From the IMG/VR virus record IMGVR_UViG_3300023198_000617: a stretch of DNA of 30,663 bases; one strand, 5' to 3'. The notes under the pieces were generated by a model. The model saw nothing but the letters and a program-made list of their open reading frames with translations, was not told where the DNA came from and made no database searches. Positions within the stretch are counted from its first letter, which is position 1. Each line of letters opens with the position of its first letter. Made by a program: the position numbers and the translations under genes. The DNA comes from an uncultured virus (IMG/VR IMGVR_UViG_3300023198_000617). Lineage: Duplodnaviria; Heunggongvirae; Uroviricota; Caudoviricetes; Crassvirales. Shown here piece by piece: positions 1-19,079 of the stretch.

Positions 1-3000
1 TGTGTGCAGGAACATTCTCACGTTCAAGTTCAACTCTTTCTTTATGAGCTTGATCTCCATGAGTCTGAAGTTTACGAATCTCAGCAGCTTCATCAGCAAG
101 AGTCTTTGCTGAGATAGGCAAGATGAGTTGTTCAAAATTATCAGGATGTAAAATGATCTCTTCCTGTACCTGAGATATAGCATTTTCTATAGAGAGCTTT
201 TCAAACTCATCTCTTGAATAAAGGAAAGGTAGATTTTCTCCTTTACTAATCATGTTATTCATAACGTCAATCGCAATATCATATTCTTGCTTAGACGTTT
301 CAGGAACTTTATCCCTGATTGCTACTAACGCATCTCGTACATTTTCTACAGTAACAGTTGCTCCTGTTTCTGAAATCTCTTTAACAATTCGATTGATGTC
401 CTTACCAATAAACGTAGCTGCTTTAGCAGTACCAAGAACTCTACGTACTGCACTTTCTTCCTGATCAATTTTGTAGTAATTATACTCGGATGCTAATCTA
501 CCAGAATCATCACCAAAGTACTCAATGTAAACAGGTTCTTTTTTACTATTAATGTAGTAGTTTGGTAGATACATGAACAGTTTATCAATATCAAAGTCTG
601 ATCCTGTTTTAGCAACAATATCAGATGGAACCATTACTGCATCTCCTGCACTTTCAGGTAAAAATCCTTTGATCTCAATAGCTTCAATTGAATTAAGACC
701 CTGAGTAGGAATCCTAAATCCGATCAGCTTAAATAATTTTGCATCAGAACTTTTTAAGTCTGCGTGTTTCATATGGTTAGGAAGATACACCTGCATATGA
801 GTGACAACAGTCTTACCCTTCTTCGTGATTCTTGTATAAGATTTTAAATCAGATGATTTCCATACCTGACCATCAGCAGAATATTCTGTTAGTCTCTCTC
901 TCCTTGTTTTTCCTACACCATTAGATACCTGTACAGGTGATCCACCAAACCGCCTCTGAGAAGAAGTCATACTATCTGCAATTGAAAGTATAATATTCTC
1001 AAGACGCTCACGGTTCACAAGCATATCTATCTTAGCACCTTTTTTCAGAGATTCAATACCTTCAATAATATTATCAGGTAAATCTCTACGGTTAGCCTCA
1101 TCAGTAAAGGTTTTAATGAGTCTATCTACATCATGAATCTTATATTTCTGCTTTCCTTTCTTGGTAGTAACAAGTTCAAGACCGAGGTCTTTAACAAGGA
1201 GTTTAACACCAATTTTAATACGCTTACGATTCAGCTTGAGATACTTCTTAGCAGGTCTTCCAAGACCACCCTCACTATCATCTTTTACTTTACCGTTCTC
1301 AAAGATTCCGTTAAGAATCTGCTTCATCATCTGACTACCAGTAATAGTTCTGGTCTTCTTCTTAAATCCCATCTCCTGCTGGACACCCCAAAACTTATAG
1401 AATGTGTCTTGGAAATGTAATGTTCTATTCTCGTCGAAGGTCCCATCGTCAGAATAAAAGTTTTGAAGTCCTTCAGAGTTGCCATCTGCATCTGGATAAG
1501 CTACAGCTTCAGTCTTGACACCAGTTCTAAACACAGCAATTCCTATCTCTTGATTCTCAAGAGTCTTACGAAGTTTATCAAGCTCTGCAAAATCATGTGT
1601 TACACTTGGAAGCAGAGGCATTAAGGAGAGCTTATACATACCCATTTTGAATCCTTCTTCTGCAAGAGGACCCATGTATTGAGGTTTAATAGGAGTAGCA
1701 ACAGGAAGTAAATCTTTATTTATAAGTCTCCCTGTCTTTAAATCTTTAGGAGTTTTTCCAAGTCGGGTCTGAACTTCCCATTGATACAAGTCTTCAAGAG
1801 AACCTGCATACCCTGATGTCCACATTCCTGCTCTGAATAGAAGTTGTCTCCACTCATGCATATTGATATATCCCTGACCATCAGCTTCATTCATTTTATC
1901 ATAAGGAAATGCAGCATCTATACCAAGTACTTCAACATACTCATTATAATTATCTGAATGAACAACAAGATCATTAAATACAGCAGTACGTAAAATAGGT
2001 TTACCGAAACCAAAGCGATCATACCTTACATACGGTCTTATAGTTCCTTTAGCATCCAGTATAGTAAGATGCTTTTCAACCCACTTATTCATCTTGTCAT
2101 AAACAGCAGCAATTCTTTTAGGACCGATTACACCATAGTTACGTTTAAACTGATCTCTGGTACTCTTATAGTTAATAGGATCAGAGAATATTACTTTGGT
2201 CTGTTCAACATTAGAAACCAGATCGTTGATTGTATAGAAAAGTAATTCACTTTCAACCTGTGCTTCAGTAAGTACGTCAAGCTGAGGAGAATCTTTCTTA
2301 TCCGGATTTGTCTTAACGTTAAGTCCGTTATTTACATATTCAATCGGTGCTCCCTCTTCTATCTCTTCCTGAGTACGCATATCCTGAATAATATTGAGCC
2401 TGAGAATCTCATCTTTATTCTCCTGTACTCGTTCAGAAACATATTCTTTTAATGCTTTCTCAATACGAGGTTTCATTCTCGGACTTTCCATGAACTGTTC
2501 AACACTCATGGTATTATCGTCAAAGAAAGCATCAAGGTCTTCAGCAAGATCATCACTTTCATACAGGATGGAAATCATAATACCATCGTGCTTACGTGTA
2601 GATGAGTTGATAAACTTATCGTTACGAGTATCTTCTACTGAACGAGAAAGTTCAGCAGTCAGATAATTTATCATTTGACCTATGTGACGATTAGAATCAA
2701 TATCATCTCTTGAGAAAAAAGGTCTTGCATACTTGATAAATCTTTCAAGGGTACTGTCTGATGGACGTAGAAGTGGGAATGTATTTTCAAGTCCATAGTT
2801 TATCTGAACTCTAAGTTGATCAGCAGGACCAAGCTCGTCGAACTGTCGTGATGTATTGGTTACATCCTGCTTACTCTCAGAGTGAATAAAATTTTCAATA
2901 GGTTGTACAGAGATGTCGATTATATCACCATTCTCATCTTTTAATGCAGTACGTTTAACACCGTCTTCATCAAATATGATACCTCCGGGTTCAAGGATCA

Positions 3001-6000
3001 TAGAATAACGATTGTAATGATCAATGTCTGTTGCTAAGTGAGGGTTCAATGCAATCAGCTCATCATAAGTATTGACTCTTTTTAAATCATCAAGAATAAT
3101 TGTATAATAACTATTATCCATAATGTTATAAACAGGATCACCGTTAGCATTTAAATGACTGTGTTCAAGATAATCAATAGTAGTATCTGCTTCGATCTCA
3201 ATAAGCACGTTAAGGTCTTCACGAGCATCAGTATCATTGTCCTTGTCGAAGAGCCAAATTTGACCGTCTTTCGTGGTCTGAATGGACTTTAAGATTGCCT
3301 GTGCTCTATTCTTAATAGAAGCCTTCATAGTAGAGTAATTACCAATCTCATCAGGATCAGTAAATACAATACCTAAACGCTCAAGAAATGCAAGAGCGTG
3401 TCTGAAATCTTTAATTTCCTTTATTCCTTTAAAGTTCTCATTATTATATATAACTATACCTTTCTTATTGACCTTCAAATCTTTACTACCAAGAGAATTA
3501 TTTCTCCATGCTTGACGAATCTTTTCAGCAGTAGAGTTCTGATTTGCATCAAAGGCAATAAATTTTCCGTTAGGTCCAGACATATCTATATTAAAACGAT
3601 GATAAGTCTTTCCGAAAGTCTGGACAAACTGAGACTGCTTGATCATATCCTTCATACTGAGATCATCTACATCCTTCTCCATAGAGAAGTCTTGAATCAG
3701 ACCATTCATATAAGGAAGCTGATAAGACAAGTCTTCCATAATAGACATCATTCCTTCGATTGAAGTCTCTCCTGAAAGTTTGTTTGCAAGAACATTGAAT
3801 ACTTCTCCAAACGGAACAACCTTAGGAAACTCCATACGGTTGCGTTTGTAATCACCTTCGACGGTATTACCATCTTTATCAGTGATAAGCTCTCTCTGTG
3901 TTGTACCTGCAAGAAGGAGTTTTACATTCTTAGATGCACTAACTTTTGAGGAAACCTTGATTACATCTGATGCCCAATTGTTATCAGGATCACGACGAGT
4001 TTCATTCTCATTTCTAAGATCGTCATAGTTTAATGCTTCGAGATTGAACTTAGACAGGTAATGCTTGTGTAATCCTTTTACGGAATACTTAGCTCTATCT
4101 GCAACTGTATCATATGCCTGAGCTTCATAGAAGTTTTCAATAGCAAAGTCAAGAGCCTGTAATACAGAAACAAGACGCTCTTGCTCAACAGGATCATCTG
4201 TCTGATTAATTTTATAAATAATTGTATGTTCAGTATTTTCGTCACCAATATTATCTATTAAATTCTGATATACCTCATCATAGATTTCTCCAATTTGAAC
4301 AGAGTTATCACTTTTATCAAAAAGTATAGCTACATCATTCTGAATTGCGTTAAAGAAATAGAAGTTTGCTCCTTCAATAATATCTCTGGTAAACGATACT
4401 GTCTTGTTATACATTGTTCGACCAAGAGCAACGTCACTGGTATTGAAACTGCTACCGTCAGTATCATCTCTATACTCATTCTGATCAATCTTCCCCCAAA
4501 CTTCAGCAATGCTATCCTGATTACCATATACTAACCAAGTAATTGAATCATAAATTTTTTGAAACAGAGTTCTCTGTACTGGTGTCTGATACTCAATGAA
4601 TTTAGATTTAACTGCATCAGGCATAGTCTTACTCAGCATAAAATCTCTAAACTCTTCTGCAAGAATTTCTTCTACAACTCCATTAGGGTAGTTCGCCTTA
4701 TCAGGATTTCTCCTTTTCCATTCACGATAAAGTGCTCTACGTTCACTACGACTGAGAATGTGTTGCGTAACTACGTGGAAAGCCTCGTGATAGGTAGTAC
4801 CTACCTCTGCATCCATAAGAATCTTAACTGCTCCACGAATCAATTGACCTTGCTTACCATCAGCTATTCTACGAACAGTACCAAAGCCTCTCTTTGGAAA
4901 ACGTTCACGAAACCATTTCTCAGCTTGAGCAATATTTTCTTTACCAAGATGATCTCCTGAAGGAGAACGATAATGAGTCTTGTCAGGCGGTGGATTCTTT
5001 TTACCCTTCTTCTTCTTTGTATCTTTCTCACCCTCAACATCTTCAACATCTACCTTATACTTCTTAGCAATAGCATCAACATCACTTTTGACATCATCGC
5101 TCTGCTTACTTTTTTTCTTTTTCTTAGTATCCTTCTCAGCCTCTTTCTGCTTAACCTTCTTCTTAGCTTTCATGTCACCTGCAACATCAGCTACAGAAAT
5201 TTCTCTCTGATACTTGTAAGTAAGATTGTCATTCAGAGCTTCAATGGCTCTCTCCATTTCCTTCTGAGGAATATTGGCTTCTGCCATTCTATTCATAAGA
5301 TTGTTGATGTTCTGAATACCTTGAGGTGATAGATTTCCATCTACTTCCTCAAAAATTCCATCTTCAGTCAAACGAAGAACTCCTCTTGTTTCTGTTGTAC
5401 GCTTATCCTTAGGACCTATTGAATCATACTGAACATAAATTCTATCTCCAACTTTAAGTTTTCCTAAACGCTTGTAAGTAGGTGATGGACTATCAGTAAT
5501 AGTCACACCAACAGCAGTCTCCTGACCTTCAAAATCTTCCTCAAATTCATCTTCTTCTACTTCTTCTTCTCCTTCAACTTCTACAATACCAAGACCTTCA
5601 GGCACATCATTAATATCAGTATAAATGTCATTAGGATGGTTATCATACTTAGCATACTGACTGTATACATGAGGATCAGTTTCACTTACAATCTCAGTAT
5701 CTTCATTTACAACATCTATCTTACTACCAGTAGGTCTCAAGAATAGGTTCACTAATCTCTCTCCATGTTTATCACCAATAAGAAACTTAACATATCCACC
5801 TTCATCTTTTGGAATAGTTTCTGCTTGAACAACACCATCAGGACTTACCTCAACTACCTGAGAAAATCCTTCTTTGGATTTAAGTTTCTGAGAACTTATA
5901 TTAATACTACGTTGTAATAGAAAATCTCTCAAAGCACCTTCTCCGTTCTCATCAACAAGAGATGGGTTAATCTGAAGATTTCCATCTTTATCAAGAATAG

Positions 6001-9000
6001 GTGTAATCTGATCATCTTCCAGATGAAAGATTGAAATTGTTTCTCTACCTAATATAAGAGAACCACCATTGTAATCACTTTCCTGATCAAAATGGAAAGC
6101 TGTATCCTCATTTTTATTTACGTTATACCACTTGTTAGTCTTCTTATTACGCTTACGATTATTACCTGTCCAGAATATAAAGTCTTCAATGACTCTTAAA
6201 CCATTTCTCTCATATTCAGTACCATTAGCACGACGAAGTTTTGCTGCACCAGTAGAATCAATATCTCCTTTTTTTCTTGGTCCTTTTCTTGACGTTGTTT
6301 TTTTCTTCTTTTCTAAGACTGTACTATTCTTAGCAAAAGACCTGAAGATATTAGAGATAATGCTAATCTCGTCATCGTTCACATTACGAGGTCTTGCCTC
6401 GTAAACATTTCCTGTTGTTGGATCATAAACAAATGTAGCACCTGTACGACGAGAACTAATATTAGCATCACCTAACGCAAGACCTTCGAGCGTATTAACT
6501 GCAACATCCACATTTTCATGACCAAGTGCTTCATCAACAGAAATTCCCGGTCTGTCCTGAAGATTTCTGTTTGCGTTTGGATCGTTAGGTATACCAAGAC
6601 TCTTACCATTTAAGCGAACATATATCTTAGCAGTCGGATCATTTTTAAGAATATCTGTTATCTTCTGACGAAATTCATTATGTTGCTTTAAGACTTTCTT
6701 CTTTTTCTTTTCAAACTTAGCATCACCTTTCTCTTTGGTCATAGGCTTTCCAAAGAATAAACTATATTCTTCAGCAGTTTGAGGTTGAAAATATTTAGCA
6801 CCATGAATCTCAGTCTCAAGTTTCAACGGAACTGAGGTATAAACATTCCATTTAGGATTGAATTTCTTTGTAGTAGTAACGCTATCATCAGCGTTCATCT
6901 TGATATATCTTCCCTTACTATCTACAATACGAGCATAATATACATCGTCAGCTTTATAGTAACCCTTTGGATATTTCTTACTAATACTCTCTTTCTCAAT
7001 ACGTTCACGTTCTTGTTTAGGAGGTCTTACTATTTGAATACGATATTCTCCACCTGCAATATTAGTTTGAGCTGTCCAACGATAATATCTACGTTGAGCA
7101 GGATCAGGATTGAGATTTATATCATCTTCCATAACGTGCTTACCTGAAAGACCTGCAAACACATTGTCTATTGAACGTTTAAGACCATCTTTCCAGAAAG
7201 CTACCGCTTCGGTTATCGTCATTGGAACACGTTCATCACTTGACTCAGCAGAAGTAGCATCATTCTCATCACGAGAACGTTCTGATTCATCTGAACTCAT
7301 ATCCTCATAAGTAGTAAATCCACCACGCTTGTTCTCTTTACTCTGACGATAATCTTCAAGAGCTTGGACTTCCTCATCAATAAAGTCAAGAGTTAAATAG
7401 TGATCATCTATAATCTCTTCAAGAACACTTACTTCCTCATTAAGAGTATTAAGTTTCTCTGACGTTGTAGTATATTCCTTTCCTTTTTCATCAGCCTGTT
7501 TCCGCTTACCTTCAATCTCACGGAGCTTAGCGTCAAGAGCAGTTCTTATTGTCTGTCTTGCCTTCTCAACTCTCATCCTGTCTTCAAGAGAAGAAGGAAC
7601 TGTAACGTGCTGTTCCTTATACCTCTTACGTGAACGATACTGTTTAGTAGGATGCTTTTTAGCTTCAAGGATAACTACAGTAGTTTTAACTGTTCGATCA
7701 GCAGTAAGCTCACCAGCAAGGTCTTGTGTTAATTCACGTTCGGTTTCCGCAAGGAGTTCTGCATTACTTTTAATTTTAAATGGAGAGAGAACATTAAGTG
7801 CATTAAAAAGTTTATTGAGAACTTTCTTTAGATGCTCTTGAATACGTTTCCACCCTACAAGAATTGCAGTATTATTTTCAATCTCCTCAATTATTTCATC
7901 AGCTTTCTTACTAAAAAATTCTTTCTCAGCTTCCGTTGTAGCAGGAGTTTCGGTATCTTCAGTTACCTTCTCTTCATTGATCCTGTTAAGGAGATACTGA
8001 AGACCAAGTTGTAGTTCTCTCTGAGCCTCAACACCTTCCTTAAACTTCTTCTCAGCAGCTTCCATAAGCTGAAAAGTACGGTTGATCAGATCATGAGTCT
8101 TTTTAATAGAATTTTCATTAACCCTTCTGTCACCTTTGTTTTTCAGACCTGTCTGATGTTCAAGATAAGCGATATGATCATGGTAATCCTTGAGCAACTT
8201 ATTATACTCGTCTTCGAGCTTCTTGTTCTCATCCTTCTGCGTACCAAGCAATCCTTTCTTAGCCTTAATTAAATCTTTCAGATTTCTTTTACGAGAAACC
8301 TTGAACTCATGCTGATCCCATTCACCTATGAAAACATATTTTTCATTAAGTTTTTCCTTGTCCAGAGTCTCAATGTTCGTTGCATTGTACCTGTTCTTAG
8401 GTCTCTTAACATAATATTCATTAGGTTTATTCTTATTCCTACGAACAAGAACAGTCCTTCCAGATTTTTTATCCCTATAAGCTGAATCTTCATAGTCAAT
8501 GTTAGTAAGAAGGGTATATGATAAACTCCTACCAGTTATTCGCTTATACGCCTCCTGAGCAGCTTTAAGGACCTCATCATGCTCAGGTAGGTTACGAGGA
8601 CGAATTTCAGTTTCAATAAAATCAGTGAGAGTTTCTAAATCTTTGATGTCTGCAAGTATCTCTACGGCTGCTTTACTATCTTCAGGATTAAAGGGAACAA
8701 CCTTCTCCTGTTCAGTTGAGATAGGTTCATGCTCTAACCTGAACTCATCATTATCAATGTCAATTTCGATAAGATCACCAATAGTATCTCCGTTCGCATC
8801 TACTTCAATCATTACGTGCTTACCGTCTTTCTTACGCACGTATTTTTTAAACTTACGTCCTGTAGAATCTATGAGATTTACTCTACCTTCATATCTCTTA
8901 ACATCTTTAGTACGTTCCTCAGCTACTTGAGCATCAGATACACCGTTAAGGAGTTTTTCAAATTCTTCCTGTCCTTCTTTGGTAAGCAGGTAATTGTACT

Positions 9001-11221
9001 GAGTAGTATAGCGTTCCCTTCTACGACGAAGTTTAGGAAGGTCTTTCATTAATTTATCAAGCTTCTTTTTATTAGATGCTTTTATATTTTTAGCAGCTTT
9101 TTCTACTTCGTCACGAAACTCTTTCATGTAATTTTCATCCTCATTCTGAGGATCATACGTTACACCTGTAAGACCAGCAATATCCTTTCCGACCTGATTT
9201 TCTCTACTTTCCATGTTGTCTATGACGGATGCAGAATATATCAGAGCCTCTCTCTTATCCCTGTTCGCTTGAACACTGAGATCAGCAGTATATGCAGCAT
9301 CTACATTTTCAACAACATTTTGAACCTTATCTACACGCTCCTCAAATGCTCTCTTAGCCTGTTCTCTACGTTCCTGAAGTTCATCTGTACCAAGTTCTTC
9401 ATAACCAAATGTCTCAGCAAAGTCGTTGTCAGACATATTATCAATTACATCTCCAAGTTCTTCTTTAAGATCAGCACCAAATCCACCTTCAATACGAGAC
9501 ATAATGAAACTATGAATCACATCATTTTCAATATTCTTAGTTTCAAAAACATTATTAGCATCAACAGCTTTAGAGTACTCCTTATTCAGATAACCGTTAC
9601 GAATCAGATTCATAACAGTAGACTTGGTACTCTTGAGATGCTGAGGATTATCCTGAAGGAACTTTACTAAATCTTCTACATTATATTTATTCAATTCTTC
9701 AGACAGGCGATCAGCTCTTCTTCTTTTATCGTTACGCTCTTGAAATGCTCCTGCAACACCACCAACCCAAAGAGGTTCACCTTTATTTCTTTTATTAAAA
9801 GCTCTGAAGTTAGGTGATCCAATTCCACCAACGATCATACCTATCCCCATTTCCTTCCAACCAGCCTTACCTCCATACTGTTCTTCCATTGCTCCACCAA
9901 AGGATTCAGCAAGACGTACTACCTGATCAGTACCATCTACTGAGTATTTCTTAGTGACATAATCAAGCATAGTATTATTGGCAACTCCCTGCATACCTTC
10001 TTCCCATACACCTTCTACAAGTGGATTCTTGACACCTGTATAAATCTTACCTGCTATCTTCTCAAGAGTATTATGATCCTTATATGCAGGTTTAAATATC
10101 TGTTTAGCAAGACCTTCAGGAGTTTCTTCAAAGCTCTTTACTACAGGAGAAAACAATTTTGTTTTTGCTTTCAGTTTATTGAGACTTGCTATCTGAAATT
10201 GCTTACCGACTTTTGGACCATAAATTTGTCCAAGACCTATCATGTTTGATAGACCTACAATACCCATGTTTGCAGCAAAGACACCATTGGCACTCTCTGT
10301 AGCCATCTCTTCAATCTTCACAAGTTCATCAGGAGGAACCTCAGTAGCATCAGGATTCTTCTGGAAGTATTGTGCTGTAAGTTCGTTTACAAGTTCATGC
10401 TTGTGATGACGAGCTTCAAATCCTGCTTCATATCCTGCACCTGTATACAATTGACGTACAATCTTTCCTGCACTACCAAGTCTTGCCTGTGCTCCTGCCT
10501 TTGCAAGAGCTTCAGTTGTATCAGCAGTTCTTCCAAATTTCTTCATATACCTTGCTCCTCTTGCTACCATAGAAGCAGTAGAAGCTCCCTGTAAACCAGC
10601 AGCAGCACCAAGAGTAGCTGCGGTTACAGTAGACCATACGAGTTCTGTCAGAATAGCACCTGTAGTAAATGCTGCTGCACCAAGTACATCGTTTGCCCAA
10701 AAGTTAGAAGTACCTAAACTACGTAAGAATCCATAATCCTGTTCCTCTTTAGTATAGTAGTTTGGAAGCTTTTGATCTAAATCTTCCATCCAACTATCAA
10801 ACATTCGTTGAGTAGAATTATCATATACAGATTTATTCTCATCGAACATTCCGGGAATACTTGCAATAGCACCTATTGTACCACCAAGAGTAATGATACC
10901 TGTCTTACCTGCATATTTAATCAGTCCATTCTTCCACTTTTCTCCACTTGATTGACCATAGGCTCGTGCATCTTCAAGACCTTCATTGATGAATACATCT
11001 CCGAAAGGAACATATTTCTCATACTTTGCAGGATCAACTTCGTACCTATCTTCTCTTAATCGTGGAGAAGCAAGTTGAATATCACGAGTAATTACAGGTT
11101 GGTAATCAATACCAGCAGCAACAGGTGGTTTAGGTCCTGTTCGTGGTCCTGTGGGAGTCAAACCTGTATTAGGATCAATTCCTTGTTGCCGAGTTATAAC
11201 CGGCTCATTTCCGTTAGCCAT
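1..11221 (-). CDS. Giant virion cargo polyprotein (>=3740 aa, 3'-truncated by the window): N-terminal hydrophobic domain + zincin protease + two-barrel DNA-dependent RNA polymerase
   Basis: ATG at 11221-11219 overlaps the TAA of the upstream gene (TAATG). Manual translation begins MANGNEPVITRQQG and stays open to position 2; with no stop in the window it is missing from the ORF track. Same-frame motifs: HEAFH (4789-4775), NEADGQGYI (DGQG 1882-1871), PIKPQYMG, KLSLMPL, GFRIPTQG (RIPTQ 715-701), GSDFDIDK (604-581). Confidence 0.93.
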   Translation of the reverse strand, partial: MANGNEPVITRQQGIDPNTGLTPTGPRTGPKPPVAAGIDYQPVITRDIQLASPRLREDRYEVDPAKYEKYVPFGDVFINEGLEDARAYGQSSGEKWKNGLIKYAGKTGIITLGGTIGAIASIPGMFDENKSVYDNSTQRMFDSWMEDLDQKLPNYYTKEEQDYGFLRSLGTSNFWANDVLGAAAFTTGAILTELVWSTVTAATLGAAAGLQGASTASMVARGARYMKKFGRTADTTEALAKAGAQARLGSAGKIVRQLYTGAGYEAGFEARHHKHELVNELTAQYFQKNPDATEVPPDELVKIEEMATESANGVFAANMGIVGLSNMIGLGQIYGPKVGKQFQIASLNKLKAKTKLFSPVVKSFEETPEGLAKQIFKPAYKDHNTLEKIAGKIYTGVKNPLVEGVWEEGMQGVANNTMLDYVTKKYSVDGTDQVVRLAESFGGAMEEQYGGKAGWKEMGIGMIVGGIGSPNFRAFNKRNKGEPLWVGGVAGAFQERNDKRRRADRLSEELNKYNVEDLVKFLQDNPQHLKSTKSTVMNLIRNGYLNKEYSKAVDANNVFETKNIENDVIHSFIMSRIEGGFGADLKEELGDVIDNMSDNDFAETFGYEELGTDELQERREQAKRAFEERVDKVQNVVENVDAAYTADLSVQANRDKREALIYSASVIDNMESRENQVGKDIAGLTGVTYDPQNEDENYMKEFRDEVEKAAKNIKASNKKKLDKLMKDLPKLRRRRERYTTQYNYLLTKEGQEEFEKLLNGVSDAQVAEERTKDVKRYEGRVNLIDSTGRKFKKYVRKKDGKHVMIEVDANGDTIGDLIEIDIDNDEFRLEHEPISTEQEKVVPFNPEDSKAAVEILADIKDLETLTDFIETEIRPRNLPEHDEVLKAAQEAYKRITGRSLSYTLLTNIDYEDSAYRDKKSGRTVLVRRNKNKPNEYYVKRPKNRYNATNIETLDKEKLNEKYVFIGEWDQHEFKVSRKRNLKDLIKAKKGLLGTQKDENKKLEDEYNKLLKDYHDHIAYLEHQTGLKNKGDRRVNENSIKKTHDLINRTFQLMEAAEKKFKEGVEAQRELQLGLQYLLNRINEEKVTEDTETPATTEAEKEFFSKKADEIIEEIENNTAILVGWKRIQEHLKKVLNKLFNALNVLSPFKIKSNAELLAETERELTQDLAGELTADRTVKTTVVILEAKKHPTKQYRSRKRYKEQHVTVPSSLEDRMRVEKARQTIRTALDAKLREIEGKRKQADEKGKEYTTTSEKLNTLNEEVSVLEEIIDDHYLTLDFIDEEVQALEDYRQSKENKRGGFTTYEDMSSDESERSRDENDATSAESSDERVPMTITEAVAFWKDGLKRSIDNVFAGLSGKHVMEDDINLNPDPAQRRYYRWTAQTNIAGGEYRIQIVRPPKQERERIEKESISKKYPKGYYKADDVYYARIVDSKGRYIKMNADDSVTTTKKFNPKWNVYTSVPLKLETEIHGAKYFQPQTAEEYSLFFGKPMTKEKGDAKFEKKKKKVLKQHNEFRQKITDILKNDPTAKIYVRLNGKSLGIPNDPNANRNLQDRPGISVDEALGHENVDVAVNTLEGLALGDANISSRRTGATFVYDPTTGNVYEARPRNVNDDEISIISNIFRSFAKNSTVLEKKKKTTSRKGPRKKGDIDSTGAAKLRRANGTEYERNGLRVIEDFIFWTGNNRKRNKKTNKWYNVNKNEDTAFHFDQESDYNGGSLILGRETISIFHLEDDQITPILDKDGNLQINPSLVDENGEGALRDFLLQRSINISSQKLKSKEGFSQVVEVSPDGVVQAETIPKDEGGYVKFLIGDKHGERLVNLFLRPTGSKIDVVNEDTEIVSETDPHVYSQYAKYDNHPNDIYTDINDVPEGLGIVEVEGEEEVEEDEFEEDFEGQETAVGVTITDSPSPTYKRLGKLKVGDRIYVQYDSIGPKDKRTTETRGVLRLTEDGIFEEVDGNLSPQGIQNINNLMNRMAEANIPQKEMERAIEALNDNLTYKYQREISVADVAGDMKAKKKVKQKEAEKDTKKKKKSKQSDDVKSDVDAIAKKYKVDVEDVEGEKDTKKKKGKKNPPPDKTHYRSPSGDHLGKENIAQAEKWFRERFPKRGFGTVRRIADGKQGQLIRGAVKILMDAEVGTTYHEAFHVVTQHILSRSERRALYREWKRRNPDKANYPNGVVEEILAEEFRDFMLSKTMPDAVKSKFIEYQTPVQRTLFQKIYDSITWLVYGNQDSIAEVWGKIDQNEYRDDTDGSSFNTSDVALGRTMYNKTVSFTRDIIEGANFYFFNAIQNDVAILFDKSDNSVQIGEIYDEVYQNLIDNIGDENTEHTIIYKINQTDDPVEQERLVSVLQALDFAIENFYEAQAYDTVADRAKYSVKGLHKHYLSKFNLEALNYDDLRNENETRRDPDNNWASDVIKVSSKVSASKNVKLLLAGTTQRELITDKDGNTVEGDYKRNRMEFPKVVPFGEVFNVLANKLSGETSIEGMMSIMEDLSYQLPYMNGLIQDFSMEKDVDDLSMKDMIKQSQFVQTFGKTYHRFNIDMSGPNGKFIAFDANQNSTAEKIRQAWRNNSLGSKDLKVNKKGIVIYNNENFKGIKEIKDFRHALAFLERLGIVFTDPDEIGNYSTMKASIKNRAQAILKSIQTTKDGQIWLFDKDNDTDAREDLNVLIEIEADTTIDYLEHSHLNANGDPVYNIMDNSYYTIILDDLKRVNTYDELIALNPHLATDIDHYNRYSMILEPGGIIFDEDGVKRTALKDENGDIIDISVQPIENFIHSESKQDVTNTSRQFDELGPADQLRVQINYGLENTFPLLRPSDSTLERFIKYARPFFSRDDIDSNRHIGQMINYLTAELSRSVEDTRNDKFINSSTRKHDGIMISILYESDDLAEDLDAFFDDNTMSVEQFMESPRMKPRIEKALKEYVSERVQENKDEILRLNIIQDMRTQEEIEEGAPIEYVNNGLNVKTNPDKKDSPQLDVLTEAQVESELLFYTINDLVSNVEQTKVIFSDPINYKSTRDQFKRNYGVIGPKRIAAVYDKMNKWVEKHLTILDAKGTIRPYVRYDRFGFGKPILRTAVFNDLVVHSDNYNEYVEVLGIDAAFPYDKMNEADGQGYINMHEWRQLLFRAGMWTSGYAGSLEDLYQWEVQTRLGKTPKDLKTGRLINKDLLPVATPIKPQYMGPLAEEGFKMGMYKLSLMPLLPSVTHDFAELDKLRKTLENQEIGIAVFRTGVKTEAVAYPDADGNSEGLQNFYSDDGTFDENRTLHFQDTFYKFWGVQQEMGFKKKTRTITGSQMMKQILNGIFENGKVKDDSEGGLGRPAKKYLKLNRKRIKIGVKLLVKDLGLELVTTKKGKQKYKIHDVDRLIKTFTDEANRRDLPDNIIEGIESLKKGAKIDMLVNRERLENIILSIADSMTSSQRRFGGSPVQVSNGVGKTRRERLTEYSADGQVWKSSDLKSYTRITKKGKTVVTHMQVYLPNHMKHADLKSSDAKLFKLIGFRIPTQGLNSIEAIEIKGFLPESAGDAVMVPSDIVAKTGSDFDIDKLFMYLPNYYINSKKEPVYIEYFGDDSGRLASEYNYYKIDQEESAVRRVLGTAKAATFIGKDINRIVKEISETGATVTVENVRDALVAIRDKVPETSKQEYDIAIDVMNNMISKGENLPFLYSRDEFEKLSIENAISQVQEEIILHPDNFEQLILPISAKTLADEAAEIRKLQTHGDQAHKERVELERENVPAH
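581..715 (-). other. RNA polymerase catalytic region (R-x-P motif and DxDxD loop DFDID)
   Basis: Translates RIPTQGLNSIEAIEIKGFLPESAGDAVMVPSDIVAKTGSDFDIDK. DFDID (598-584, about aa 3542-3546) is the catalytic motif variant known from the crAss-like phage phi14:2 gp66 RNAP. Confidence 0.95.
4649..4789 (-). other. Zincin-like metalloprotease motif within the giant ORF
   Basis: GTTYHEAFHVVTQHIL (HEXXH at about aa 2145), followed 34 residues later by EEILAEEF, which supplies a candidate third Zn ligand. Confidence 0.85.
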
Positions 11222-13464
11222 TATGGGTTCTGATTAGATTCCTGTTGCTTTAATTCTATCAATGCAAGTTGTCCAACAATACTTTGCATCTGCTTAGGAG
11301 TAAACATTTTTATATTATTTTCTCCTACTACTTCACCTTGATCATTTAAAACTTTATCCCTTACATAGTTTTTAAAAGGTTCACCAGCTTCATTTACATC
11401 GTTATAATACAATAACCAGTGATTATCCTTTTTATCTGAATGAAATACCTTCTCAAAAAGTAATGGGTGTCCGTGGAAAGTTGCTCCGGGAACTTCTCCC
11501 TTTGCCTTACGATAAAGATCAGCATCTTCTATCATACTACCATAAGTATAGTTAGATATAATGTTACCTGCCATGTCTTGTGCAGTGGGATCACCACTGT
11601 TAAACATATCCTGTGCAACTCTTATCATCGTTCCACGAATACCTCCATCGTCAAGTTCCTGTACAAGTATCTCATTACCAAGATGATTACCGTCTTCATC
11701 ACGAAGATCAACGCTGATAGCTACCTTACCATTGAATGTACCATCAGTAACACTTGCCCATGATTTCTCCTTGTCAACCCTACCATCATATTTCTCTTGA
11801 ACAGCAGTATTGAATTGCATACCTGTACCAGCAGTAACCCAATTACCAGAAGTTGTTCTGAACATAGTGGTCAATGTCTCATTGATTCTTCCAGCAGGAG
11901 TAGTGAGGTCTTTACTACCTACTTCACCTCCAAGTATTTGAACATCCTGAGAGATAACTCCATGTTTCTCAGAGTAATTATCAAGAGACCTGCGTACTTC
12001 CTTTGCTGCTTTCTTGAGCTTCTTCTCAAGAGGTGCAAATCTGGTATTAGTCAGTTCAAGTTCTTTTTGAATCTCGTCTAAGGATAGTCCTTCAGATGTC
12101 ATCTGATACGCATAGGTATTGAATTTCTCAGGAGTTATTACCAAACCCTGATCTTCAGCCATGCCAATTAAAATCTCTCTATCTTCTCTCGTCAGAGGTT
12201 TTGCAGGACGACCTTGTTTCTGTTCAAATTCTTGTTTTAATTCTTTTGTAACAAAGAAATCGTTTACATAGTCATCATATAGACCTGTAGTAATAGGTGC
12301 AAATTCAGAACTCTTCACGTTCTCCATGACGAGATTACGCTCATTGGTCATGTCCTCATACTCTTTCTCTTTAGCAGCCAGTGTAGGATTCTCAGGATCA
12401 TCAGCAAATGATTTTCTAAGAGCAAGTAATTCTTTTCTACTCTTAGCTACATCTCTTGTTACTTTTCCCTTACCAAGTTCTGTCTGATTAACAATTGAAA
12501 TAGCTTCACTACCTACGCCTAAATTATAACCTCCTGCAACAGTACTGGTTCCTGAACTTGTTATTTTACTTCCTCCTGTATAAGAGAGTCTTTCTTCTGA
12601 ATAAGGTTTACCTGCTGCAAATCCATAGACATAATTTTTTGCTTCCTTTATAATTTCTTCCTCAGTCATGTCACCAAGCCTTCTTCTGGATTCTCCATAA
12701 TCAGGAACACTTTCCAAGAAAGATTTAGCAATCGCATTGTTCTCAGAATCACCAAGTCCGATCTTATCACGAATCATTTTATCAGTCAGCTCAGTCCTTG
12801 TTCCATACTTATAGAAATCATTTATAGCTTCATCGGTTAATCCTGCATTTCTAAGCTCAATTGGAGTAATACTTGCTCTGATGTCAGAGATAAGCATTCT
12901 TGCAACAGGAGGATAATTACCTCTCTTACCACCTTCAAAAGTCAATTCTTCAGTAGTGCGTAGTCTCTCTTTATCAGGATCATAAGCTCCTTTACCTATT
13001 ACATCAGTATATATATGAGCATCAGGATTTTGAAGTTCAAATGCCTGTTGTACTTTTTGTTGCTGTGCAACATATTCGCTTCTCTTCCAGAATGGATCAG
13101 CACGAATATCAGTAATCTTACGTGCAACATCCTTACGTGCCTTTCCCCAATCTCCACCAAACTTCTCATCTACAGTCTTTTGCATACTTTCCATGCTCTG
13201 ATTGATAAGTTGATTTCGACGGAAGGTATCATCAAGTGCAACAGGAGCCTCCATTGCCTGTTGTCTTGCAGCTAATGCACCAGCAATAGAAGCATCGTAA
13301 GCCTGTTGTCTGCGATCAAACTGCTGCTGAAGAAACTCTATAGGAATAGGTTCAAAGAAGGATTTATGTTGAAATGCAATAGGTTGTTGATACCTATAGT
13401 TTGATCTATACCCTCCTCCGGAAGAACCATATCCACCTTGTCTTTGATCATATCCGTTAGCCAT
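11221..13464 (-). CDS. Putative virion cargo/ejection protein (747 aa)
   Basis: Long ORF directly upstream of, and translationally coupled to, the RNAP gene. N-terminal FFEPIPIEFLQQQFDRRQQAYD followed by helical segments resembles the crAss-like cargo protein at this position. Confidence 0.7.
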   Translation of the reverse strand: MANGYDQRQGGYGSSGGGYRSNYRYQQPIAFQHKSFFEPIPIEFLQQQFDRRQQAYDASIAGALAARQQAMEAPVALDDTFRRNQLINQSMESMQKTVDEKFGGDWGKARKDVARKITDIRADPFWKRSEYVAQQQKVQQAFELQNPDAHIYTDVIGKGAYDPDKERLRTTEELTFEGGKRGNYPPVARMLISDIRASITPIELRNAGLTDEAINDFYKYGTRTELTDKMIRDKIGLGDSENNAIAKSFLESVPDYGESRRRLGDMTEEEIIKEAKNYVYGFAAGKPYSEERLSYTGGSKITSSGTSTVAGGYNLGVGSEAISIVNQTELGKGKVTRDVAKSRKELLALRKSFADDPENPTLAAKEKEYEDMTNERNLVMENVKSSEFAPITTGLYDDYVNDFFVTKELKQEFEQKQGRPAKPLTREDREILIGMAEDQGLVITPEKFNTYAYQMTSEGLSLDEIQKELELTNTRFAPLEKKLKKAAKEVRRSLDNYSEKHGVISQDVQILGGEVGSKDLTTPAGRINETLTTMFRTTSGNWVTAGTGMQFNTAVQEKYDGRVDKEKSWASVTDGTFNGKVAISVDLRDEDGNHLGNEILVQELDDGGIRGTMIRVAQDMFNSGDPTAQDMAGNIISNYTYGSMIEDADLYRKAKGEVPGATFHGHPLLFEKVFHSDKKDNHWLLYYNDVNEAGEPFKNYVRDKVLNDQGEVVGENNIKMFTPKQMQSIVGQLALIELKQQESNQNP

Positions 13465-13475
13465 AACTATGTTTT

Positions 13476-15119
13476 TTATACACCGTAAACTGATTTTTCC
13501 TGTAACGGATCACCAGTAATATCAGTATATGATGATTGAACCATTTCTCCGGGTTGAGTCATCCCAAGAATCCTTCTTAACGGAGTATCTCCACGACCTG
13601 CTTGAAATCTGTAATTATCAGGAGTTGCCATTTGAGCCATTACATCAAACTGATTAGCTCTGTTAATATCCATACCATAATCAGTTAATGCACCAAGACC
13701 ACTTGCCCATCTCTGACCTCTACGCTGTTCGTTAATCAACTGACCTTCTCTATCGTATTGAAAGTTTAAACGATCTGCTATTGATCTTTGCTGAGCATTA
13801 AATTCACCAGCTCGGTTACGAATTTGAGCATTAATGTTTCCTTCATTCTGGAAACTCGTACTCAACCCTCTACCTAAATTTCGTTGAGTACCAGTTGCAC
13901 CTGCCTGTAATCTTTGACTCAATTTTGCTCTTGATCCTCCTGTCCCTTGACCACCACGAATCGTAGCATTTGCAATATCTCTGTCACGTTGCAGTTGTTC
14001 ACGCTCTCTCGCAAAACTTACAGTTTGAGGTGTAATTTGTTGAGGTTTAATCCGATTTTGATCAAAGTCAATATTTCTATTTCCAATTATGCCTGCTGCT
14101 CCTGATGCTGCGTGTGCCCACCACGGAACTCTTGAATTATAAGGATCACCTTGTTGAGATGCTAATCCTTGCCACCATTGCTTTGCTCTACTTGGACCTT
14201 CCACTTGTGGAAAAGGAGAATCAGGTGATGCAATTACACCGGGATTAGCTTGAGGTTCAATACCTCCCACTGATCCATAACCTTGTGCTAAATCCTGTTG
14301 ATACTGATTAGTTGAAGGATCATAAGCATTTGGATCATTCCATATAAAATCTGATCCTTGACTTCCTTGACCAAGATTAGGTTGATCTGTATAAGTAGGA
14401 GCAAAGAATCCAGTTCTCTGACCTCTATTAACAGGTTGAGCTAAGTATTGAGGAAGCTCTCCCGGTCCTTGATATACTGGAAGAAGATTACCACCTGTTG
14501 CAAATACATTCGTAGTATCTGGTTGCACAGACGAAGGATTTAGAAAAAGAGGTCTTTCTCCTTCCTGAACTTGTCGTGCTTGTTCATTCATATAAGGATT
14601 AATATTTCTTATATTCGGTTGTGGTAATGGTACAGGTTGTACTCCTTGAGGATTACCAAATTGAGGCTGAGGTAAAGGTACAGGTTGAGTACTATCTTGA
14701 GGAAATAATCCCTGAAGCATACTTGTGTTACCAAATGATCCTTTTATTCCTTCTAAACCTTGTTGCCTAGCTGTTTGAAGACTACCACCACCTTGAAACT
14801 GAGGTTGTCCTGTAGCTTGAGGAGCTTGACCACCTGCAAGTCCAGAAGGACCACCTTGAGGTATTCCCGGTTGTTGAGGACCTTGATTTCCTTGTGGTTG
14901 TTGAAGTGCTTGAGACAGTTGTGAAAGCTGTTCAGTATTAGCATTCTTAATCAACTCCTGAACTCTTTCTTTTTCCTGCTTATCTCGTAAACCAGCAAGT
15001 TCCTGATTCATAGCTTCCAAAGCAAGTACATCTCCTTTGTCGAATTTCTCTCCAAGACGAGGCTTATACTTGTTCATTATTGTCTTTGCTTCATCAGCAA
15101 AACTTTTTTTCTTAGCCAT
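13476..15119 (-). CDS. Putative virion cargo protein (547 aa), Gln/Pro/Gly-rich; resembles the C-terminal part of crAss cargo protein 1
   Basis: Starts MAKKKSFADEAKTIMNKYK...LAGLRDKQE, has a long low-complexity Q/P/G middle, and a C-terminal helical region with NAQIRNRAGEFNAQ, typical of ejected internal proteins. Confidence 0.72.
   Translation of the reverse strand: MAKKKSFADEAKTIMNKYKPRLGEKFDKGDVLALEAMNQELAGLRDKQEKERVQELIKNANTEQLSQLSQALQQPQGNQGPQQPGIPQGGPSGLAGGQAPQATGQPQFQGGGSLQTARQQGLEGIKGSFGNTSMLQGLFPQDSTQPVPLPQPQFGNPQGVQPVPLPQPNIRNINPYMNEQARQVQEGERPLFLNPSSVQPDTTNVFATGGNLLPVYQGPGELPQYLAQPVNRGQRTGFFAPTYTDQPNLGQGSQGSDFIWNDPNAYDPSTNQYQQDLAQGYGSVGGIEPQANPGVIASPDSPFPQVEGPSRAKQWWQGLASQQGDPYNSRVPWWAHAASGAAGIIGNRNIDFDQNRIKPQQITPQTVSFAREREQLQRDRDIANATIRGGQGTGGSRAKLSQRLQAGATGTQRNLGRGLSTSFQNEGNINAQIRNRAGEFNAQQRSIADRLNFQYDREGQLINEQRRGQRWASGLGALTDYGMDINRANQFDVMAQMATPDNYRFQAGRGDTPLRRILGMTQPGEMVQSSYTDITGDPLQEKSVYGV
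14616..14687 (-). repeat. Imperfect 24-bp in-frame repeat encoding QPVPLPQP twice
   Basis: 14687-14664 and 14639-14616 both encode QPVPLPQP, with synonymous differences. Confidence 0.85.
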
Positions 15120-15123
15120 AACT

Positions 15124-18999: not shown

Positions 19000-19009
19000 A
19001 ATATTTTTT

Positions 19010-19036
19010 ATTATGTCATTATGTAAAATTAGTCAA
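19010..19036 (-). promoter_or_regulatory. Possible promoter upstream of the cargo/RNAP block
   Basis: 80-bp AT-rich gap between muzzle and cargo genes. The minus strand reads TTGACT-N15-CATAAT, with TG one base upstream of the hexamer. The spacing is short and the predicted leader very short, so support is weak. Confidence 0.25.
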
Positions 19037-19079
19037 GTATTTAGAAGAACTCAACATTTAGCATTAAAACTTTCTAATA

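Follow-up and report, generated by a model that had tools for sequence, protein, structure and literature searches.

A giant reading frame that probably carries the RNA polymerase block of a distant crAss-like phage in one gene

The stretch of DNA analysed here (the window; 30,663 nucleotides of the uncultured Crassvirales record IMGVR_UViG_3300023198_000617) contains the first part of a giant minus-strand gene which, with a probability of roughly 0.85, holds the RNA polymerase (RNAP) block of a distant uncultured crAss-like phage in a single gene. From its N-terminus, the encoded chain comprises a hydrophobic domain (domain A), a variable middle, a Lys-rich linker, a zincin-like domain (Z1), a predicted two-barrel RNAP, a SLOG-like insert, a second zincin-like domain (Z2), and a large helical C-terminal module (Table 1). 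All functions given for the protein derive from homology to studied phages, with which it shares 21-29% identity. Fusion of the RNAP block into giant proteins has been published as a hallmark of the crAss-like phages and is common among the relatives of this one; despite its great size the protein is an unremarkable member of that class, and as a discovery it carries little weight. It is, rather, a clean example, in which all parts are present in one uninterrupted chain under the standard genetic code.

Both the ORF listing and the translation give a single frame of 3,740 codons without a stop, running from the ATG at 11221 to the left edge of the window, where it is still open, as the first-pass annotation had read it. 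This ATG overlaps the TAA of the upstream ORF in the junction TAATG. As the DNA of the frame is only 36-39% G+C, a stop-free frame of 11.2 kb is not a product of chance. The full-length product was found in the protein collection as P0002, a protein of 6,118 aa and 700.3 kDa encoded on a 92,663-bp contig, and it is 100% identical to the window frame across the 3,740 aa. Its C-terminal 2,378 aa are known from this database protein alone, the window DNA ending earlier; a 48-base word taken from the left end of the window had no exact match in viral_contigs, and of 17 pattern matches to the final 1,200 aa of the frame none was confirmed. The expectation that the units are fused into one chain, likely of more than 4000 aa, is thus borne out by P0002, in which the third partner is fused as well. 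A megablast search of window positions 1-11300 against GenBank phages returned no match, and Pfam no family for the 3,740-aa translation. PHROGs matched that translation only with phrog_32390, in domain A, and, over a short part of the DFDID region, with phrog_16227, a profile of 4,401 positions.

Table 1. Features of the giant gene and of its upstream context; residues are those of P0002.
Feature	Residues (aa)	Window position	Strand	Remarks
Giant gene, in-window part	1-3740	2..11221	(-)	first 3,740 of 6,118 codons (P0002)
Domain A	66-690	9152..11026	(-)	Gly/Ala-rich, hydrophobic, conserved; homologous to N-termini of crAss001 gp47 and phi14:2 gp67
Three hydrophobic stretches in domain A	104-127, 178-208, 313-331	10229..10912	(-)	Kyte-Doolittle
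Variable charge-rich middle	691-2009	5195..9151	(-)	conserved in closest relatives only
Lys-rich low-complexity linker	2010-2092	4946..5194	(-)	directly before Z1
Z1	2093-2270	4412..4945	(-)	zincin-like; motif HEAFH
HEAFH motif	2145-2149	4775-4789	(-)	within Z1
Virion RNAP module, in-window part	2271-3740	2..4411	(-)	module to ~aa 4380; homology to phi14:2 gp66
DFDID motif	3542-3546	584-598	(-)	within RNAP module
Remaining 2,378 codons		left of window edge		rest of RNAP, SLOG-like insert, gp49/gp65-like module
SLOG-like insert	~4385-4550	outside window		weak PF12694 match
gp49/gp65-like third module	4577-6118	outside window		opens with Z2
Muzzle protein gene		19080-22907	(-)	PF25731 crAss_MUZ, E 5e-181
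Upstream context		11221..22907	(-)	muzzle, then three cargo-position ORFs of 1,291, 547 and 747 aa; last ends in TAATG

The C-terminal part of the window frame is, on the basis of homology, a crAss-type virion RNAP. A phmmer search aligned the RNAP module with phi14:2 gp66 (PDB 6vr4_A) at an E value of 4.7e-27, in an alignment that spans GSDFDIDK, and the virion RNAP proposed in the first-pass annotation is thereby confirmed through the DFDID motif itself. In blastp, residues 799-1771 of gp66 align with residues 2942-4025 of P0002 (E 5e-48, 1,131 columns). Furthermore, a model of residues ~2270-2480 aligns in VIA-align to residues 97-277 of 6vr4_B, which belong to the N-terminal region of gp66, with a Z score of 7.7. 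From the homology to gp66, P0002 is predicted to hold two double-psi beta-barrels in one chain.

Upstream of the RNAP lies Z1, which is a conserved zincin-like domain, as judged from its alignment and its model, with putative metallopeptidase activity. Its HEAFH motif, like DFDID, sits exactly where it had been placed before (about residues 2145 and 3542, respectively), and the region does look zincin-like, as had been suggested. In the Z1 alignment H59, E60, H63, E98, E99 and A102 are invariant in 35/35 sequences, and HExxH lies inside the Z1 match in 123 of 146 relatives. The invariant Glu pair, E98 and E99, corresponds to residues 2184-2185 of P0002 within EEILAEEF; it is found 35-36 residues past H63, on model helix 94-111, and may supply the third metal ligand.

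The AF2 model of Z1 (pLDDT 82.4) consists of a three-stranded sheet, the HExxH helix and a Glu-bearing helix. In a wide VIA-align search with this model the top rows were nearly all zincins, at Z scores of only 6.8-5.0, below 8. The best row was 1yqy_A, the catalytic domain of anthrax lethal factor (Z 6.8, rmsd 3.5, 122 aligned), and others were 6fpc_A (PPEP-2, Z 6.3) and 9g0j_A (PPEP-3, Z 5.9). Foldseek returned no row at E <= 0.001 for the same model, although its weak top rows include the zincin-like chains 6d2s, MATCAP, 6mdx, ArdC and PPEP-3; for an earlier, shallower model (11 sequences, 388 aa, pLDDT 60.6), the one that gave the VIA-align match of residues ~2270-2480 to gp66, it found nothing. 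At the level of sequence, Pfam gave no peptidase family for 11 Z1 segments even at E <= 10, and the Z1 profile drew chance-level rows only from the PDB sequences. The Z1 model resembles the lethal-factor / Pro-Pro endopeptidase (M34) zincins in its sheet, HExxH helix and Glu helix, but not through any sequence-level match. We take the EExLAEEF pattern of Z1 to resemble the third-ligand motif of the same family.

Domain A, at the N-terminus, matches phrog_32390 at an E value of 4.9e-44, and by tblastn it matches crAss001 gp47 and structural proteins of Cellulophaga phages. Residues 116-721 of gp47 align with residues 105-681 of P0002 in blastp (E 5.7e-17), and a domain A HMM finds crAss001 gp47 at 1e-127 and phi14:2 gp67 at 1e-81. 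In the protein atlas the domain matched unnamed viral clusters only, and in one of these 12% of the members bear LPD22. Hydrophobic helices had been described here at about residues 95-470; three Gly/Ala-rich stretches do lie within those limits, but they are only moderately hydrophobic, the 19-residue Kyte-Doolittle means peaking at 1.2-1.5, below the customary transmembrane threshold of 1.6. These stretches may nonetheless insert into a membrane, and the ejection role suggested for the domain is putative.

The variable middle that follows (residues 691-2009) has no Pfam or PHROGs family and aligns with the proteins P0004-P0007 only. It gives way to the linker, where 40-aa windows with at least 14 Lys occur at residues 2001-2060, and the alignments of distant relatives start at residues 2084-2130.

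Beyond the RNAP, the SLOG-like insert matches the cpYpsA SLOG family PF12694 at an E value of 1.4e-5 and 25.3 bits, which is below the gathering cut-off of 26.2. The third module then opens with Z2, a variant zincin-like domain without HExxH, whose motif at residue 4646 is EEAAH; the form EExxH replaces HExxH in 20/20 aligned Z2 sequences. Z1 and Z2 are nevertheless paralogous by hhalign (probability 73.9%, E 2.8e-5). In blastp, crAss001 gp49 matches the third module over residues 4582-4711 and 5403-5919 (E 2.9e-14 and 3.5e-9).

In phage phi14:2 the genes gp67, gp66 and gp65, which were annotated from MS/MS, close the structural gene block on one strand and hold the three modules in the order seen in P0002, and the GSDFDIDK catalytic motif of gp66 is identical to that of P0002. 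In phi14:2, however, they are three separate genes of 1,797, 2,180 and 1,421 aa, whereas P0002 is one chain. Moreover, phi14:2 lacks Z1, as neither gp67 nor gp66 contains an HExxH and the Z1 HMM has no match there; it lacks the SLOG insert; and at the position of Z2 its gp65 has a zincin-like HEIMH in place of EEAAH.

In crAss001, gp47 carries domain A at the N-terminus and Z1 near the C-terminus (YHEAFH, residue 2157), like residues 1-2330 of P0002, and gp47 residues 2137-2209 align in blastp with P0002 residues 2125-2200 at 39% identity. Its gp49 has the same EExxH variant of Z2. Yet the block is again divided into three genes, gp47, gp50 and gp49, with the break after Z1 and with gp50 and gp49 on the strand opposite to gp47, in line with the separate cargo genes that the first-pass annotation gave for both characterised phages. 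Mass spectrometry of crAss001 detected gp47 (262.5 kDa), gp49 (154.5 kDa) and gp50 (276.9 kDa), which sum to 693.9 kDa as compared with 700.3 kDa for P0002.

In the Suoliviridae cr118_1, cr4_1 and cr114_1, proteins of 4,946, 4,491 and 4,272 aa carry 1,680 aa or more ahead of Z1 (HExxH) and the RNAP (DFDxD), and a gene of its own, 1,584-1,803 aa long, encodes the third module. The domain A profile found no match in these three giant ORFs at E <= 1e-3, and two of the three have a recoded stop, with in-frame stops under table 11. The Intestiviridae (CrAssphage LMMB, crAss002, cr107_1, cr3_1 and cr8_1, including the prototypical crAssphage genus) hold the same modules in two genes, one of ~2,000 aa from domain A to Z1 and one of 4,070-4,422 aa with the RNAP and the third module, and the break thus falls after Z1. 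In GenBank the two products of CrAssphage LMMB are annotated as 'RNAP associated protein/zincin protease fusion protein' (QIN93287) and 'RNAP catalytic subunit/RNAP subunit fusion protein' (QIN93286).

The best GenBank match to P0002 is the uncultured phage cr108_1 (Steigviridae, Pipoluvirus). A group I intron (RF00028, 80 bits) splits its RNAP gene within the DxDxD motif, and once the intron is removed domain A, Z1 and the RNAP form one reading unit; in blastp gp_22606 and gp_22607 match P0002 residues 2095-3542 (E 3e-125) and 3543-4305 (E 3e-68). The third module of cr108_1 is a separate gene, 29% identical to that of P0002 across ~1,600 aa, gp_22608 matching residues 4573-6112 at an E value of 1.9e-173.

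The first-pass annotation had presented the fusion as new. It is, however, already in print: the Drobysheva preprint describes the three proteins as fused in some phages, and a review gives the RNAP gene as 'up to ~6000 aa'. Among the 150 best relatives, Z1 and the RNAP share one chain in 140, and 118 of the 150 have 1,000 aa or more joined to them on the upstream side; the same arrangement was found in 3/3 sampled Suoliviridae genomes and in cr108_1 minus its intron. The fusion seen in the window is therefore usual in a described family. The complete triple fusion, taken as more than 1,000 aa beyond the RNAP core, is rarer (7/140). Z1-bearing clusters number 3,082 in all. Because the 150 were selected with a Z1 profile made from P0002's own relatives, the sample over-represents the clade in which fusion is usual, and some of its metagenomic proteins may be truncated.

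The remaining chains reveal where the block divides. Among the 150 best relatives, Z1 comes first in the RNAP chain in 10 and last in the upstream chain in 3; it is also last in the upstream chain in 5/5 Intestiviridae and in crAss001, while in 9 of the 150 only Z2 follows the RNAP. For the order as a whole, the tally offers a handle on possible cutting and activation of the virion polymerase and its partners, and on their mechanism: every break adjoins Z1 or Z2, Z2 has the EExxH form throughout, and Cys is nearly absent from the chains.

By analogy with phi14:2 and crAss001, P0002 would be packed in the capsid, would leave through the tail ahead of or together with the DNA, and, once ejected, would transcribe the early genes. 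Fusion would fix synthesis and packing of the three parts at a 1:1:1 ratio, the parts themselves being unchanged.

The foremost alternative is that P0002 is a self-processing polyprotein, in which Z1, and perhaps Z2, would cleave the 700-kDa chain close to the linkers, either during assembly or after ejection, to yield the three or four proteins that other crAss-like phages make from separate genes. This is the less probable course, albeit one of real standing. All zincin signature residues of Z1 are kept, its model has zincin topology with endopeptidases as the nearest solved folds, Z1 and Z2 mark the exact junctions between modules, gene breaks occur naturally on either side of each, and a Lys-rich linker precedes Z1; the preprint, too, terms the fused forms 'likely cleaved'. 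Conversely, Z1 is just as conserved in crAss001 gp47 and the Intestiviridae, where there is no such fusion to cut, and it must therefore have another job. The EExxH of Z2 is likewise at odds with a second protease, and the fold matches of Z1 are middling. Nor does the virion RNAP of coliphage N4 (Schitoviridae), which we take to be of the T7-like single-subunit type rather than two-barrel, argue for cleavage, as its chain is not known to be cut. It is described as a single chain of ~3,500 residues with the RNAP central and an HExxH in a C-terminal subdomain; it is likewise a giant chain that is packed and ejected, but no sequence relation to P0002 was seen. Since Z1 is equally conserved where the parts are separate genes, we lean slightly toward a chain with no obligatory self-cleavage.

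A bolder proposal, which is tentative and somewhat doubtful, would make Z1 and Z2 junction-resident modules for processing and activation, fusion and fission being interchangeable because the chain would be cut there. The slot after the RNAP, SLOG-like in this phage, would then deliver an extra enzyme into the host, and the near-total lack of Cys would be an adaptive feature of a protein that crosses the tail and periplasm unfolded.

Whether P0002 enters the virion at all can be judged from its surroundings. Besides the muzzle gene, upstream ORFs match crassvirus tail ring 1 and 2 (PF24228, E 6e-41; PF25702, E 2.2e-26), and the muzzle and tail-ring genes together mark the phage as a distant member of the Crassvirales. 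P0002 has a single Cys in 6,118 aa, at residue 3775 inside the RNAP, and among the 2,585 aa of the three cargo-position ORFs there is none; no such depletion is seen in the muzzle and ring genes. Such a near-absence of cysteine would fit a protein that travels unfolded. A role inside the infected cell would suit the SLOG-like insert and the zincin-like domains just as well, which raises the prospect that P0002 is made but not packed and serves as an intracellular, non-virion protein of a transcription/replication factory. This is most improbable, however, as the gene ends the structural operon, downstream of the muzzle gene and translationally coupled to the cargo-position ORFs with which it shares its Cys depletion, and as every studied homologue is a virion protein.

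That the single frame is an artefact of mis-assembly or consensus errors, the genes being really separate, has next to no likelihood even for a metagenomic assembly, since errors break frames rather than create them, the complete P0002 frame runs for 18.4 kb without a stop at ~37% G+C, composition is even along the frame in the window, and an Rfam scan of the window found no family and hence no known intron. Similarly long frames, of 5,285-5,845 aa with the same three-module chain, are kept in five independent clusters at 34-39% identity, which is further evidence against such an artefact, and two more distant clusters have chains of 6,320 and 6,581 aa.

P0002, the full database product of the giant minus-strand gene, belongs to an already described class, in which it is a very large member with all parts fused. 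The first-pass annotation had described a single stop-free frame from the ATG at 11221 and expected it to continue past the window edge beyond 4000 residues, and both points were borne out: all 3,740 codons in the window are open, and a search of a large protein collection returned P0002, of 6,118 aa, at 100% identity across the query. This protein is encoded on a 92,663-bp contig, and the residues past the left edge are known from the sequence of the database protein. The ATG of the giant gene overlaps the stop codon (TAA) of the ORF before it, giving TAATG, and G+C content along the frame is uniform, at 36-39%. The same search yielded 17 proteins at E ≤ 0.001 out of 2,201 scored candidates. 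Five clusters among them (P0003-P0007; 5,285-5,845 aa, 34-39% identity) match every part of P0002, while most of the other listed proteins, of 3,988-4,892 aa, match only the N-terminal domain and aa ~2084-4300. Megablast of the giant-gene region of the window against GenBank phages gave no matches, and an Rfam search of the whole window gave no families at threshold.

Among the ORFs upstream of the giant gene, one encodes the Crassvirus muzzle protein (PF25731, E 5e-181) and others encode tail ring proteins 1 and 2. Since these genes are present and the best GenBank identity of the muzzle protein is below 30%, the source phage is, by sequence, a distant member of the Crassvirales. Three ORFs of 1,291, 547 and 747 aa after the muzzle and ring genes occupy the position of the crAss001 cargo proteins. 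In the 1,291-aa ORF (window 15124-18999, minus strand), which lies between the muzzle gene and the other cargo-position ORFs, the N-terminal region is endolysin-like over aa 37-231 (phrog_7348, E 3.2e-32); Pfam returned no families for this ORF.

Features of the giant gene and its surroundings
Feature	Location	Strand	Basis or content
Giant ORF, in-window part	ATG 11221 to left edge	minus	3,740 codons without stop (ORF listing, translation)
A (hydrophobic N-terminal domain)	P0002 aa 66-690 (window 9152-11026)	minus	blastp to crAss001 gp47
Variable middle	between A and Lys-rich linker of P0002	minus	
Lys-rich linker	P0002 aa 2010-2092	minus	
Z1 (zincin-like domain)	P0002 aa 2093-2270	minus	HEAFH
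RNAP	after Z1, to about P0002 aa 4380	minus	gp66 / 6vr4_A match
SLOG-like insert	P0002 aa ~4385-4550, outside window		Pfam
Third module	P0002 aa 4577-6118, outside window		blastp to cr108_1 gp_22608, crAss001 gp49
Cys-poor region	window 2-18999	minus	giant gene and three cargo-position ORFs

The module map was drawn by blastp against the translated products of GenBank records, and the domain calls of the first-pass annotation proved correct. Residues 116-721 of crAss001 gp47 align with aa 105-681 of P0002, and residues 2137-2209 with aa 2125-2200 (39% identity). Phi14:2 gp66, the virion RNAP, aligns over its residues 799-1771 with aa 2942-4025 (E 5e-48), crAss001 gp49 with aa 4582-4711 and 5403-5919, and cr108_1 gp_22606, 22607 and 22608 with aa 2095-3542, 3543-4305 and 4573-6112, respectively. 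Alignment with the solved structure 6vr4_A (E 4.7e-27), in a stretch that includes GSDFDIDK, confirmed the central part of P0002 as a crAss-type RNAP; the DFDID motif lies exactly where annotated, at aa 3542-3546 (window 584-598). The stretch that separates the RNAP from the third module scored 25.3 bits for the cpYpsA SLOG family (PF12694), just below the Pfam cut-off of 26.2. A SLOG/cpYpsA-like module also follows the RNAP in 7 of the best 150 relatives, and IAS virus carries a separate 'molybdenum carrier' gene directly upstream of its RNAP. Domain A contains Gly/Ala-rich hydrophobic stretches of moderate hydropathy (1.2-1.5) at aa 104-127, 178-208 and 313-331. It resembles virion 'structural proteins' of the non-crAss Cellulophaga phages phi17:2 and phi4:1 (145 kb; 31% identity, E 1e-26), and also a 2,208-aa structural protein of the epsilon crAss-like phage csAssE-Sib.

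The HEAFH motif of Z1 was likewise placed exactly (aa 2145-2149, window 4775-4789). Both the Y/H-E-x-x-H signature and a Glu pair (EExLAExF) 35-36 residues past HExxH are invariant in alignments of 11 and then 35 sequences; among 146 relatives with a Z1 match, HExxH is kept in 123 and absent in 23. Modelling from a shallow alignment first gave a poor structure (pLDDT 60.6), for which Foldseek returned no matches. The second model, covering aa 2087-2304 with 35 sequences (pLDDT 82.4, pTM 0.72), consists of a helix, a three-stranded sheet, the HExxH helix and a helix bearing the Glu pair; Foldseek returned no rows for it at E ≤ 0.001. When it was compared with 48,161 chains by VIA-align, zincins ranked top, at scores that are not decisive alone (Z < 8): the catalytic domain of anthrax lethal factor (Z 6.8, rmsd 3.5, 122 aligned), the Certhrax N-domain (6.6), PprI (6.4) and Pro-Pro endopeptidases (6.3, 5.9), with MATCAP, ArdC, neprilysin, M32 carboxypeptidases, SprT and Wss1 in lower rows. 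Because the invariant motif is combined with these fold matches, a zincin-like domain is the sound reading of Z1, whose enzymatic activity is putative. Searches of curated families and PDB chains with the Z1 sequence and profile, including Pfam on Z1 segments, gave no matches. GenBank labels the homologue from CrAssphage LMMB 'RNAP associated protein/zincin protease fusion protein'.

Profile-to-profile alignment relates Z1 to Z2, the domain of ~200 aa with which the third module opens (P0002 aa 4577-4800), over 125 columns (hhalign probability 73.9%, E 2.8e-5), with PEEAAH opposite YHEAFH and ExxLxxEAxGK opposite EExLAEEF. The motif in Z2 is EExxH, not HExxH, in all 20 aligned sequences; by sequence comparison, Z2 is a variant paralogue of Z1. 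A zincin-like domain has been reported for phi14:2 gp65, which has HEIMH at the position where the Z2 alignment has EExxH.

For the mechanism, homology and gene context are established, and we infer the remainder. The homologues of P0002 in phi14:2 and crAss001 are reported to be virion proteins, and phi14:2 gp66 to be ejected and to transcribe early genes. The mass of P0002 (700.3 kDa) is nearly equal to that of crAss001 gp47, gp49 and gp50 together (693.9 kDa), and fusion therefore contributes just linkage and a fixed 1:1:1 dosage. P0002 has a single Cys in 6,118 residues, at aa 3775; Cys is absent from the 2,585 residues of the three cargo-position ORFs and occurs 13 times in the 3,388 of the remaining seven ORFs of the window (Poisson p 1.6e-9). 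The best 150 relatives hold 265 in 589,490 residues (0.045%), with at most two in 123 of them. Such scarcity would fit proteins that travel unfolded through the tail and periplasm. Z1 or Z2 may also cut the chain: cleavage is plausible because both lie at junctions, with natural gene breaks on either side, and would not be required, because Z1 is conserved where the genes are already separate.

The fusion had been regarded as novel, which did not hold. Giant and fused forms of the gene are in print: the Drobysheva preprint describes fusion of the three proteins in some phages and calls the fused forms 'likely cleaved', a 2023 review gives the RNA polymerase gene as 'up to ~6000 aa', and Yutin 2021 describes the RNAP block as 'several large, multidomain proteins'. 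At E ≤ 0.001 the Z1 profile matched 3,082 representative clusters, a number that falls to 2,496 at 1e-10 and 727 at 1e-30. The best 150, a sample that leans to the clade of P0002 itself and may include truncated proteins, were sorted with locally iterated profiles. One chain combines at least 1,000 aa upstream, Z1 and the RNAP core in 118 of them; the upstream part is 251-999 aa in 12, Z1 forms the N-terminal end of the RNAP chain in 10, the chain stops after Z1, without RNAP, in three, and seven are fragments or other forms. Of the 140 chains bearing Z1 and RNAP, A is detectable in 97 and a tail of more than 1,000 aa follows the RNAP core in seven. Eleven chains are at least 5,000 aa long, three of them at least 6,000 aa (6,118, 6,320 and 6,581). 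Two relatives, P0074 (6,320 aa) and P0108 (6,581 aa), exceed P0002, and in them the RNAP core is followed by 1,464 and 1,721 aa; third-module profiles did not recognize these parts, which may be a C-terminal module that is either divergent or of another kind.

The full triple fusion was found in none of 13 GenBank genomes (three Suoliviridae, five Intestiviridae, and the Steigviridae phi14:2, crAss001, IAS virus, cr85_1 and cr108_1). All three Suoliviridae join Z1 and RNAP in one chain of 4,272-4,946 aa, with the third module as its own gene, whereas all five Intestiviridae encode a ~2,000-aa protein ending in Z1 and a second of 4,070-4,422 aa comprising RNAP and third module; phi14:2, crAss001, IAS virus and cr85_1 have three genes. 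The closest record, cr108_1 (MT774385.1), is split only in appearance. A group I intron (RF00028, L001 18047-18365, 80 bits, E 8.8e-21) interrupts its RNAP gene within the DxDxD catalytic motif (AKAGSD/YDIDKMY), so that the CDSs annotated there, of 2,967 and 798 aa, are two exons of a single A, Z1 and RNAP gene. Read under table 11, the annotated giant CDSs of the Suoliviridae cr114_1 (L007 3619-16437) and cr4_1 (L008 2809-16284) contain 69 and 38 in-frame stops, in line with the recoding of stop codons that has been reported for such phages.
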